64,000 nt of DNA from a bacterium. Its GTDB lineage: Bacteria > RBG-13-61-14 > DATKZS01. The DNA is taken from positions 1,152,001 through 1,216,000 of the forward strand of contig CAXXFL010000001.1 of assembly GCA_963674965.2 (NCBI GenBank). Direction: 5' to 3'. The notes under the pieces were generated by a model. That model was given only the letters and a program-made list of their open reading frames with translations. It was not told the origin of the DNA and did no database searches. A program made the position numbers and the translations under genes. This document shows positions 20,143-23,360 of this stretch, one piece after another; position 1 is the stretch's first letter, and every line of letters begins with the position of its first letter.

Positions 20143-21051
20143 ATGTATCGTCTAATAGAACAGGAAAAAAACCTCACCATATTTTCGTCTCAGTGGGAAA
20201 GGAAAAATCTTTTGGGAAAGAAAAGAAAAGTCGACTCCAAGGAGATCGGACTTGGCATAGCGCTGATCTTCGGAAAATACCTACTTCGAACGGAACATCT
20301 CCATTACGGTTACTGGTCCGACGGCGTGGAAGTACACTATCTTAACCTCTCCGACGCTCAGGAAAAATACTGCGAATTCCTGGCCTCGAAAATTCCGGAG
20401 GGTACAAAAACCATCCTCGACGTCGGATGCGGGGCCGGGTCATTTGCTCTTAAGCTTATTTCTCTTGGCTACGAGGTCGATTGCGTGTCTCCGCCGGGAC
20501 TTCTGACTGAAAGGGCCAGGGAAGTCCTCGAGGGAAAAAGCAGCGTTACCATCTCAGGCTTCGAGGAATTTTCCACCGACAAACGCTATGACCTGGTGCT
20601 TTTCAGTGAAAGCTTCCAATATGTCAAAATAAAACAGGCGCTTAAAAAATGTCTCGATCTGCTTAATAAAGACGGGCACATCCTGATTTGCGACTTTTTC
20701 AGGAGAGCGAACACTCCAAAAGGATTGTTGGGTGGAGGGCACAAGATTGAATTGTTTGAAAAAGCCATTTCCAAATTTCCCCTGGAAAACCTTATCGATA
20801 TCGACATTACGGAACATACGGCGCCTAACATCGACATATATAACGACTTTCTTATCAAAGTCGCCAAGCCGCTCATGGAACTCCTGCTTTACTATCTCGA
20901 GTATAACCGGCCATTAATGCATCGAATTATCAACTGGAAGTTCAGCCGGATTTTCGATAAGGTCAGCGTGAAATACTTTTCCAACGACCGAAACTCGGAC
21001 GAGTTTAAAACGCATAAAATCTATAAATGCCTCCTTTACCGAAGGACCTGA
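20143..21051 (+). CDS. Class I SAM-dependent methyltransferase (sterol/tocopherol MT-like); true start may be slightly downstream
   Basis: HLHYGYW, ILDVGCGAG, YDLVLFSESFQY. Confidence 0.88.
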   Translation: MYRLIEQEKNLTIFSSQWERKNLLGKKRKVDSKEIGLGIALIFGKYLLRTEHLHYGYWSDGVEVHYLNLSDAQEKYCEFLASKIPEGTKTILDVGCGAGSFALKLISLGYEVDCVSPPGLLTERAREVLEGKSSVTISGFEEFSTDKRYDLVLFSESFQYVKIKQALKKCLDLLNKDGHILICDFFRRANTPKGLLGGGHKIELFEKAISKFPLENLIDIDITEHTAPNIDIYNDFLIKVAKPLMELLLYYLEYNRPLMHRIINWKFSRIFDKVSVKYFSNDRNSDEFKTHKIYKCLLYRRT

Positions 21052-21213
21052 AGACAATCAAATTGGCATAGCGATAGCTTTTATAAAGGTCTTTTCCAAT
21101 CCCTTTTCTTGCCCGAGCGGACTTTATCCGGATCGCGTCTGGAATTTCTCTTGACGCGCGAATTATTCCGTACTAAAAGTATAGCCTCTATCGTGAAAAG
21201 GAGATGGTATGAA

Positions 21214-21420
21214 TGAAGAGTTTTGAGGTGGTAAATACTTCAACTAGGTTAGGAATGATCTATTGGAGTAGGCGGGTCGTGGGCTGGATCGTTTTCGTGA
21301 GGCTTATGACCTCGTAAAGGAGATTAGTCAGCCCCGCGACTGGAGCGCCACCGTAAGGCTAGACCTTGTATAGGAGTTTGGCGGCCCCTCAAAGCGTGTC
21401 TACTCCGACCTTAGATCAAA
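21214..21420 (+). ncRNA. Putative IS110 bridge RNA (ends approximate)
   Basis: Closing stem TGATCTA..GGAGTAGGC / GTCTACTCC..TAGATCA enclosing two stem-internal-loop-hairpin units that carry AAAGGAG (21316-21322) and ATAGGAG (21370-21376). Confidence 0.75.
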
Positions 21421-21445
21421 TTTATTTCTAGGGAGGAGTAAGGAA

Positions 21446-22462
21446 ATGGGAAGGTACATTGGAATCGATCTGCACAGGAATTGTTTCACCTCTTGCGTCC
21501 TGGCCGAGAACGGACGGAACTATCTCAAGGACTGGCGTCTCGAGGATTTGGAGAAGTTTTGCTCGACGCTTCGCGAGTCCGACGAGATCGCGGTTGAGGT
21601 CACGGGCAACGTCCGCCTTTTTTACGACGCCGTTCGCGGCCTCGTTTCCCGCGTCGTGGTTGTCAACCCTCGCCAGTTCAAGGTCATCAGCGAGTCGGTC
21701 AACAAAACGGACGGCAACGACGCCAGACGCCTTGCCCTGTTTTTGTCCAAGGGCCTTTTGCCGGAGGTGAGGATGCCGAACAAGGAACACGCTCAGGTTA
21801 AAAGCCTCACTCAAAGCCGGGACAAGCTGGTGAAGCTTCGCACGGCCTTGAAGAACAAGATCAACAACATCTGCTCGGCCCACGGCATCAACCTGAAGAA
21901 GGAATATCTTTCCAGCGAGAAGGGCCTTGAGACGGTGCAGGAGATACCTTTCGACCCCATGGTCAAGACCGAGGTCCGCGTCCTGGTGGAGCAGATTCGG
22001 GGCTTGAACGCCGGGGTCAAGGAGCTTGAGGCCGCCATCAAGGACTCGGGCAATCAGCTTCCCGGTCACAAGAATTTGAAGAGCATAAAGGGTATCGGGG
22101 ACCTTGGCTCGGCCATACTTTTGTCGGTGATCGTTGACGTCAAGGACTTCCCCGACGAGGGCAAGCTGGCCTCCTACTTCGGCATCGTCCCCCGGGTTAG
22201 CAACTCGAACGAGACCAGCCGCTCGGGCCGGATCACGAAGCGGGGCAACAAACTCGGCCGCACTACCCTGGTCCAATGCGCCCTCATCGCCAAGCGTTAC
22301 AGCCCTTATTTGTCGAGCTTCTACGAGCGTATCAAGGCCAGGCGCGGCGCGGGCAAGGCCATCATCGCACTGGCTCGCAAATTTTTGAAGATCATTTACA
22401 TCACTTTACAGGAAAACTTGATTTGGGAGGACTTCCCGAACGGAGTAATAGCGAAAGGCTGA
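21446..22462 (+). CDS. IS110 family recombinase/transposase
   Basis: YIGIDLH, AVEVTG, KTDGNDARRLA (DEDD); LKSIKGIG; SYFGIVP...S; ITKRGN; KAIIALARK. Confidence 0.96.
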   Translation: MGRYIGIDLHRNCFTSCVLAENGRNYLKDWRLEDLEKFCSTLRESDEIAVEVTGNVRLFYDAVRGLVSRVVVVNPRQFKVISESVNKTDGNDARRLALFLSKGLLPEVRMPNKEHAQVKSLTQSRDKLVKLRTALKNKINNICSAHGINLKKEYLSSEKGLETVQEIPFDPMVKTEVRVLVEQIRGLNAGVKELEAAIKDSGNQLPGHKNLKSIKGIGDLGSAILLSVIVDVKDFPDEGKLASYFGIVPRVSNSNETSRSGRITKRGNKLGRTTLVQCALIAKRYSPYLSSFYERIKARRGAGKAIIALARKFLKIIYITLQENLIWEDFPNGVIAKG

Positions 22463-22523
22463 GTTTGTAAAATAATTCAGCTAATTTAAAAGGTTGGGTA
22501 GACAACCATCATAGGAGGAAGCC

Positions 22524-23360
22524 ATGAAAAACCGGCTTACCGAGCTTCTTAAAATAGAGTATCCCATCATCCAGGGCGGGATGATGGAGATTTCCCGCGC
22601 CAGACTGGTGGCGGCGGTATCCAACGCGGGCGGCATGGGTACCCTCGGCCAGAGGATGGACCTTGCCGCTTGGCGGGACGAGGTCAAGAAAACCAGGGAC
22701 CTTACCGATAAACCCTTCGCCATAAACCTTCCCATGCATGTGCCCGACCTCGACAAAAGGCTCGATATCATCAAGGAAGAAGGCGTCAAAGTCGTGGCCA
22801 CCGCCGCCGGAAACCCGGCCCGAGTAATCGGCGAGCTAAAAGATGCCGGAGTCACGGTCATCCACGTGGTGGGGTCGGCGGCCCAGGCCGTCAAGGTCGA
22901 GGCCGCCGGGGTCGAGGCCGTGGTGGCGGAGGGCGGCGAAAGCGGCGGCATGGTGGGCAAAGACAGGGTCTCGACCATCGTCCTTGCCCCCGAGGCCGTT
23001 GACGCGGTCAAGATACCGGTTGTCGCCGCCGGCGGTCTTTGCGACGCAAGAGGACTCGTGGCGGCCCTGGCTCTCGGGGCCCAGGGCGTGCAGCTCGGCA
23101 CCAGGTTTGTCGCCTGCCTCGAGTGCGACGCGCCTCAAAAATGGAAAGACGCCATTATAAAGGCCAGGGACACCGATACTCATATCGTTCCACGAGGCAA
23201 GGCCCAGGCCAGGATGCTCAAGGACGAGGTAGAAAAAGGAGCCATGGCCGGCATCGTTGCGGCCAGGATCGATAAAATCGAAACGGTCGAATCTATCATA
23301 CATGAAATGGTGTCGGAGGCCGAACAAGTTCTTGCCCGCATAAAGGAGCAGATTTTGTAA
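22524..23360 (+). CDS. Nitronate monooxygenase / FabK-like flavoprotein
   Basis: IEYPIIQGGM, AVSNAGGMGTL, VAEGGESGG, PVVAAGG, GVQLGTRF. Confidence 0.92.
   Translation: MKNRLTELLKIEYPIIQGGMMEISRARLVAAVSNAGGMGTLGQRMDLAAWRDEVKKTRDLTDKPFAINLPMHVPDLDKRLDIIKEEGVKVVATAAGNPARVIGELKDAGVTVIHVVGSAAQAVKVEAAGVEAVVAEGGESGGMVGKDRVSTIVLAPEAVDAVKIPVVAAGGLCDARGLVAALALGAQGVQLGTRFVACLECDAPQKWKDAIIKARDTDTHIVPRGKAQARMLKDEVEKGAMAGIVAARIDKIETVESIIHEMVSEAEQVLARIKEQIL

Follow-up and report, generated by a model that had tools for sequence, protein, structure and literature searches.

A candidate bridge RNA in the left end of an IS110-family element that inserts at Shine-Dalgarno sequences

The window analysed here is a stretch of 64,000 nucleotides (nt) from a bacterial genome (GTDB lineage RBG-13-61-14; DATKZS01; assembly GCA_963674965.2, contig CAXXFL010000001.1, positions 1,152,001 to 1,216,000 of the forward strand). 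It carries at 21204-22517 an insertion sequence of the IS110 family, 1314 base pairs (bp) long when the right-hand core is counted once, in which a recombinase gene is flanked by a left non-coding end of 242 nt and a right one of 55 nt. All features described below lie on the plus strand and are numbered from the first letter of the window. A first-pass annotation had proposed that the left end specifies a bridge-RNA-like molecule with readable target and donor guides, and every stem, hairpin and loop strand that it had mapped is indeed present at its position.

The gene (21446-22462) encodes a bridge recombinase of 338 amino acids (aa) with DEDD RuvC-like and Tnp domains [Pfam matches PF01548 (DEDD_Tnp_IS110) and PF02371 (Transposase_20)], and it scores 221.5 bits against the NCBIfam model NF033542, 'IS110 family RNA-guided transposase', for which the cut-off is 140. 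The only solved relatives are IS621 (8wt6, E = 6.6e-13) and ISCro4 (E = 1.7e-12), both matched mainly over the C-terminal domain. Residues D8, E51, D89, D92 and S254 are invariant in 29/29 aligned relatives, S254 being aligned with the serine of the IS621 'YES', which by our own residue count we take to be the catalytic S241.

Limits, copies and relatives of the element

The genome contains ten full copies of the element, all 100% identical, and one 48-bp left-end fragment. Two of the copies lie head-to-tail on contig 7 (loci L005 and L010) with a dimer period of 1314 bp; this period and the limits common to the ten copies therefore define the element as 21204-22517. Upstream of every copy is a flank ending in AAAGGAG (21197-21203 in the window), which we read as the left half of the target plus the core (AAAGG + AG). 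The downstream flank is variable, with seven different sequences at nine sites (GAAG twice, ATAC, TATT, ATGA, AGTG, AGAT twice and AGAC). The left terminus ATGGTATGAAT (21204-21214), the right-donor sequence, is near-invariant in 66 orthologues; each copy terminates in CATAGGAG, and its last seven nucleotides, ATAGGAG (22511-22517), would comprise the left donor and the core. AGGAG is found at both junctions in 10/10 copies and nothing else is duplicated, i.e. insertion occurs without target-site duplication. At joined ends AGGAG is bordered only by CAT..ATG (3-5 bp, imperfect), and there are no subterminal inverted repeats of 7-17 bp.

The tandem copies on contig 7 have one ATAGGAG/ATGGT junction in common (the slash marks the joint), so the donor junction exists in the chromosome. 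Tandem copies are by-products of IS110 transposition according to a preprint (10.1101/2025.10.25.684509). The solo fragment (locus L011, G000:C6:1074153-1074200) is a 48-bp left end with the AAAGGAG flank, the remainder of the element being missing, and the sequence around it is a paralogue of the contig-7 target.

Isolate genomes hold few close relatives: a scan of isolate genome contigs returned one distant locus at 29% identity and, among related genomes, matches at E <= 1e-30 occur in 6/61, the genome of the window included; a scan of viral contigs for relatives found none. They are abundant in metagenomes: 4599 of the 8000 metagenome proteins scored match at E <= 1e-20, the best 120 of these at 67-100% identity. 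A scan of metagenome DNA gave 341 relatives among 595 candidate stretches, of which the best 80 (64-85% identity) were used; at least 237 nt of upstream sequence is present in 71/80. The two-loop pattern described below could be parsed in 72/81 sequences (it failed in L044, L066, L067, L069, L081, L084, L100, L110 and L111), and omission of four without a left terminus and two duplicates leaves the 66 distinct left ends. Further afield, a tblastn search of plasmids found a sole member of the clade, a 50%-identical element on a Tardibacter plasmid, and the genome handled here as G031 has a 34%-identical element in 17 copies with a like target habit and layout. A separate 34-kb plasmid record holds an unannotated stretch of 134 residues, 65% identical to the C-terminal part of the recombinase, that looks like the relic of a related element. 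In one metagenome copy (L050, 315-360) the left flank is a partial duplicate of the copy's own left end, the two starting 45 nt apart; its flank GAAGAAG differs from its guide.

Fold and guide strands of the left-end RNA

The 240-nt left end folds with an energy of -92.9 kcal/mol (z = -4.66), and 0/200 shuffles fold as well. The predicted RNA would comprise a 5' hairpin, two internal-loop modules within a closing stem, and one further long-range helix. When the helices of the first-pass annotation and the 5' hairpin are laid over the 66 orthologous left ends, 98.4% of the pair cells are paired, against 31-45% with slid partners. Changes on both sides are seen in 13 of the 38 pairs (137 cells), compensatory changes occur in five of the six helices, and not one of 500 shuffles reaches any of the five measures used. 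The conserved two-loop fold that had been postulated is thereby borne out. RNAalifold independently arrives at a consensus with the 5' hairpin, the closing stem, both inner hairpins and the target loop's outer stem; in the donor loop's outer part it matches C.CC to the guide's GG.G and does not form CGCCA/TGGCG. Rfam gives no match at E <= 1 in 20900-22700.

The 5' hairpin (21238-21264, helix 1) has 4/5 pairs with changes on both sides (0/300 permutations). The closing stem (helix 2) is formed by GGAGTAGGC (21265-21273) and GUCUACUCC (21398-21406); 99.8% of its cells are paired and it is mostly invariant, with U-A replaced by C-G in three sequences. It had originally been drawn longer, as 21256-21273 with 21398-21418. 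The 9-bp core is what is conserved; for the outer extension (21256-21262 with 21412-21418) the cognate duplex energy equals the permuted one (154/300 permutations), so that this part shows no covariation and was rejected, and the stretch 21256-21262 pairs instead within the covarying 5' hairpin. The outer stem of the target loop (helix 3) joins GTCGTGGGCTG (21276-21286) to CAGCCCCGCGAC (21329-21340), with 98.2% of cells paired and three pairs changed on both sides. Its inner hairpin GAGG/CCTC (21299-21313, arms 21299-21302 and 21310-21313; helix 4) shows A-U exchanged for G-C in 17 sequences. On the 5' side of the donor loop (21346-21354), CGCCA (21346-21350) can pair with TGGCG (21379-21383) as helix 5, which is 99.7% paired and has no pair changed on both sides, and the inner hairpin AAGG/CCTT (21355-21367, helix 6) has 4/6 pairs so changed. 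The long-range helix, P1, connects 21222-21228 with 21387-21393. It is present in the minimum free energy (MFE) fold and its arms covary, the cognate duplex having -17.8 kcal/mol against -15.4 for non-cognate arms, a value that 0/300 permutations reach.

In each module the 3' strand would be made up of GU, a 7-nt guide and 2 nt. That of the target loop (21314-21328) reads as a GU linker, the guide AAAGGAG (21316-21322), AU at the handshake position (21323-21324) and a linker UAGU. Letter for letter, the guide matches 21197-21203, the left flank and core, and it would pair with the strand complementary to these. In orthologues, 64 left flanks end in ..AGGAG. Covariation was measured as the identity of the 3' strand to the flank at 64 loci where the left flank is 9 nt or longer. 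At position -7 the identity is 0.88 against 0.52 permuted (0/2000 permutations), and at -6 it is 0.92 against 0.87 (7/2000); at -5 and -4 it also exceeds the permuted value, owing to locus L075, where guide and flank both read CACAGAG. The GU linker (-8 and -9) shows no correlation with the left flank at the same loci. The target guide is therefore exactly 7 nt long and, to judge by these sequences, is naturally reprogrammed. The guide-target covariation that the first-pass annotation had named as a check on its target- and donor-binding loops is thus found for the 3' strand of the target loop, and the long 3' strands can be taken as the guides it described. The AT that follows the target guide is the same as the dinucleotide with which the left end starts in 62/64 loci; in the Tardibacter element, the handshake is CT and the left end starts CTGGC. 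The AU would thus occupy the handshake position, matching the first two bases beyond the core.

The 5' strand of the target loop, GAUCGUUUUCGU (21287-21298), is variable and U/G-rich (53% U, 20% G). Part of it, GTTTTC (21291-21296), had been suggested as a guide to the right target, a suggestion that is not supported: the nine sites of the identical copies have seven different right flanks between them, and at 54 loci the strand does not covary with the right flank. Compared position by position there is no signal (320 cells, maximal |z| of about 2.6), and cognate pairing equals permuted pairing at every register. The strand is at most a degenerate guide for a purine-rich right flank. Right flanks are purine-rich at positions 1-2 and the strand is 53% U, so non-specific wobble pairs could form. 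With the register set 3 nt from the hairpin, 32/45 positions pair (Watson-Crick or G-U) at the nine sites of the window's element, and 62/75 do so for the G031 element, where the strand ends UUUUUC-CC-U and the sites read GAAAAA.

The 3' strand of the donor loop (21368-21378) consists of the GU linker, the guide AUAGGAG (21370-21376) and UU at the handshake position. This guide is identical to the right terminus (22511-22517), with which it would pair in the same manner as the target guide does with the flank. The two bases after it equal the right flank in 13/54 loci against 8.0 expected, a count reached by 58/5000 permutations. The 5' strand of this loop would be short, with 4-5 nt complementary to ATGG, as compared with the U-rich target strand that lacks a specific partner. 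Two registers complementary to the start of the left end, ATGG(T), are candidates: CCAC (21348-21351) and ACCGU (21350-21354), of which the latter is the strand that had been proposed. An association of its first base with donor position 4 does exist across 68 loci (C-G 49, U-A 11, U-G 4, C-A 0, other 4), but three families are fitted better 3 nt upstream. There, 3 nt from the hairpin, CCAC, UCAU, CCAG and AUUAU stand opposite ATGG, ATGA, CTGG and ATGAT. The Tardibacter strand CCAG-CU-U is the complement of CTGG followed by a CT core and a linker, and the 17-copy element of G031 has AUUAU for a left end starting ATGAT. Since the 5' strands are short or degenerate, the choice of target rests on about 7 nt that spell a Shine-Dalgarno sequence.

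Insertion at Shine-Dalgarno sequences and expression signals

The target of the element is a Shine-Dalgarno sequence, which is entered just after GGAG and in the orientation of the gene. Among 52 orthologous right flanks of at least 16 nt, 41 open an open reading frame (ORF) whose start lies 3-13 nt after GGAG, most often 6-7 nt; the sites of the G031 element read aGGAG/GAAAAAtg. In the window it is the sequence at 21197-21203 that has been entered, and the right terminus at 22511-22517 supplies a replacement Shine-Dalgarno sequence, ATAGGAG, for the gene that starts downstream with the ATG at 22524. Six orthologues (L074, L075, L088, L095, L097 and L107) have a right flank beginning GAGGAGGAG..., the target being a run of GGAG repeats, and in 4/6 of them no ORF follows this target by the test used for the 52 flanks.

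The captured Shine-Dalgarno sequence is itself followed, after 6 nt, by a mini-ORF of five codons (MNEEF*, 21210-21227), read from the sequence, which possibly serves to hold ribosomes away from the RNA. Many rows of the orthologue alignment have ATGAAT and then an early in-frame stop. The unpaired guides at 21316-21322 and 21370-21376 spell a Shine-Dalgarno sequence as well and are accordingly complementary to the 3' end of 16S ribosomal RNA.

Joining of the ends would also assemble a promoter. A putative -35 box, TAGACA (22499-22504), comes to lie 17 nt from a putative -10 box in the left end, TATGAA (21208-21213, preceded by TG). By our own reading, 56 reconstructed junctions have TAGACA or TTGACA, a spacer of 17-18 nt and then TGgTATGAAT.

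The motif GGAGTAGACA occurs twice in the element, in the right end at 22494-22504 (as GGGTAGACA in the window), where it overlaps the putative -35 box, and in the 5' arm of the closing stem (21265-21274). Both sites can pair with GUCUACUCC (21398-21406), which in turn is complementary to the Shine-Dalgarno sequence of the recombinase gene; in the MFE fold 21400-21406 is paired with the GGAGGAG of that gene. Such alternatives might form a chain of pairings by which translation is controlled.

Relation to known guide RNAs and alternative explanations

In IS621 the target loop is described as a stem, a linker, a 9-nt left guide (A50-U58), U59, a stem-loop, the linker G72-U73, a right guide at 74-80, the handshake at 81-82 and a linker at 83-86, so that the sense guide A50-U58 lies 5' and the antisense guide G77-G80 lies 3' (PMC11208158). 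Set against the descriptions published in 2024 (Durrant et al., PMC11208160; Hiraizumi et al., PMC11208158), the element of the window resembles IS621 in its DEDD and Tnp recombinase, in the location of the RNA in a long left end upstream of the gene, in two internal-loop modules for target and donor, in a core common to both junctions without target duplication, and possibly in -35- and -10-like boxes that would be united at joined ends. The resemblance extends to the layout of the 3' strand, GU followed by a 7-nt guide ending on the core, a 2-nt handshake and a 4-nt linker (nt 72-86 of IS621). It differs in that the guide with the left-flank sequence is on the 3' strand (21316-21322) and not the 5' strand, the core presumably reads AG on the coding strand, specificity resides mainly in the 7-nt 3' guide with a 5' strand of 4-5 nt (donor) or a degenerate one (target), and around the modules there are a closing stem and a long-range helix that crosses it. 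The order of the guides is thus the reverse of that in IS621, as the first-pass annotation had suggested.

That annotation had further suggested a distinct subgroup. This is fair, yet the reversed order has a precedent in the seekRNAs of IS1111-type elements (ISEc11, ISPa11, ISKpn4 and ISPst6), where the complement of the top strand lies 5' of the match to the bottom strand (Siddiquee et al. 2024, PMC11187229). Here both loops have the sense guide on the 3' side, and a 5' partner is supported for the donor loop only. According to the same source (PMC11187229), IS1111 transposases are 330-350 aa long, the non-coding region follows the gene, and the elements bear 7-17 bp subterminal inverted repeats. 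The 338 aa of the recombinase agree with this size, whereas the RNA is upstream of the gene and long subterminal repeats are absent. The family combines the RNA position of the IS110 type with the guide order of the IS1111 type.

Other comparisons are looser. IS900 and IS901 of Mycobacterium avium, also of the IS110 family, target translation-initiation signals upstream of genes, as cited in PMC2942039; the likeness is one of target habit. The present element differs from what is cited there in being inserted directly at the 3' edge of GGAG and in bringing along a replacement Shine-Dalgarno sequence. The seekRNA of ISEc21 (IS110 type, locus L123) likewise comes from an upstream non-coding region with AG common to both junctions, but in the text of PMC11187229 its order is bottom-strand match 5' and top-strand match 3', opposite to the order found here. 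ISEc21 was rejected as a worked comparator, a k-mer reading of its guides being ambiguous and its protein unrelated to the recombinase by BLASTP (E = 0.19). A search for IS621 in the Escherichia coli record of L123 returned only ISEc21 copies, a frameshifted IS110-family gene and an ISEc45 fragment. A 2026 preprint (10.64898/2026.10.21.760802) reports 86 covariance models and 32,190 bridge RNAs, many deviating from IS621. Our literature search found no left-end RNA with reversed order in print, figures and supplements lying outside that search.

We conclude, with a probability of roughly 80%, that 21204-21445 encodes the bridge RNA of this 1314-bp IS110-family element and that its geometry is a mirrored form of that of IS621. 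The layout of 2 + 7 + 2 + 4 nt equals the right-target-guide side of IS621, from which we infer an IS621-like RNA-DNA geometry with a CT core. Read on the opposite strand, the target would be (right flank, complemented)-CT-CCTTT, that is, an IS621-type CT core and then the right target. This would put the core on the antisense strand with respect to the genes for the RNA and the recombinase, and give the cargo an orientation opposite to the polarity of the recombination site.

Several observations weigh against this conclusion. The kinship of the recombinase to IS621 is distant and runs mostly through the C-terminal domain. A bridge RNA is defined by four guide segments, and here one of them, the target loop's 5' strand, is unsupported; ATAGGAG is invariant in loop and terminus across the family, which leaves no variation in which covariation could appear, and the C/U-G/A association in the donor loop follows one subclade and may be inherited, not repeated. 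Locus L060 has CT at the handshake position and yet an ATGGT left end. The position of the core inside AGGAG cannot be read from the junctions alone, and its assignment to AG/CT comes from length homology to IS621 and from the CCAG-CU-U of one relative; in the main family the 5' strands are without the core CU of an IS621-like left guide, loop 2 having CG, CA or CU and loop 1 being variable. P1 crosses the closing stem, which would require a pseudoknot or alternative folds. Finally, a consensus promoter scan of the natural tandem right-end/left-end junction reported no promoter.

The molecule might instead be a bridge or seek RNA with a geometry unlike that of IS621, its 3' sense guide acting on the coding strand and its core placed elsewhere in AGGAG than at AG/CT. 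The guide order is that reported for IS1111-type seekRNAs, the protein falls in the IS1111 range of 330-350 aa, most members lack the core CU in their 5' strands, and neither the extra closing stem nor the long-range helix belongs to the description of IS621. We nevertheless regard this as unlikely: the GU linker and the 2 + 7 + 2 + 4 nt layout match the right-guide side of IS621, the AU/CU at the handshake position tracks the donor start, the Tardibacter CCAG-CU-U is exactly like an IS621-type left guide, and the non-coding region is upstream with no 7-17 bp subterminal repeat.

Two further explanations dispense with a guide RNA. The left end might be mainly a cis-acting leader for translation of the recombinase, its GGAG loops and CUACUCC arm being Shine-Dalgarno and anti-Shine-Dalgarno mimics and the matches to the flank a by-product of insertion at Shine-Dalgarno sites. 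The MFE fold, which joins 21400-21406 to the recombinase GGAGGAG, and the crossing of P1 with the closing stem, expected of alternative folds, would suit such a leader. It leaves unexplained the covariation of loop positions -7 and -6 with a flank outside the element and the complete switch of the L075 guide to CACAGAG; the family is moreover known to be RNA-guided, and a regulatory role could coexist with guide function, so that we hold the leader to be very improbable as the main function. The chances are slimmer still that the AGGAG repeats are subterminal recombinase sites acting as DNA, with no RNA involved. AGGAGAT and ATAGGAG are indeed found at the ends and within the left end, and GGAGTAGACA in both the right and left ends, but the compensatory changes in five of six helices reveal selection on an RNA fold, of which the AGGAG motifs occupy the unpaired strands.

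Within the bridge-RNA interpretation a more far-reaching proposal can be made, tentatively and with more doubt than confidence. The clade, taken to include the element on the Tardibacter plasmid (50% identity) and that present in 17 copies in a genome of another phylum (34% identity), might represent a third, undescribed guide arrangement of the IS110 family. The RNA would be in the left end as in IS621, the site polarity inverted relative to the cargo, and nearly all specificity vested in a 7-nt strand of the right-guide type, the left-guide-type strand having decayed to a U-rich wobble strand. Such elements would have specialised in homing to Shine-Dalgarno sequences, and the replacement that they donate would keep the gene downstream translatable.

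Bridge recombinases are under development as programmable DNA-rearranging tools, and a natural family with a long, dominant guide of the right-target type would reveal what in the IS621 rules can be dispensed with; a near-absent left-target-type strand and an inverted cargo would likewise inform these rules. Such a family could widen the design space towards orientation control and minimal guides. The gain is moderate, as the bridge-RNA system, its diversity and the reversed guide order of IS1111 are already in print, and the layout, a genuine variant of that of IS621, has a partial precedent. For the element itself, an RNA-guided mobile DNA would be using the ribosome-binding site, the most common conserved 7-mer in a bacterial genome, as a safe landing pad that is repaired on insertion, and it may be because of this repaired landing pad that the element reaches ten or more copies.

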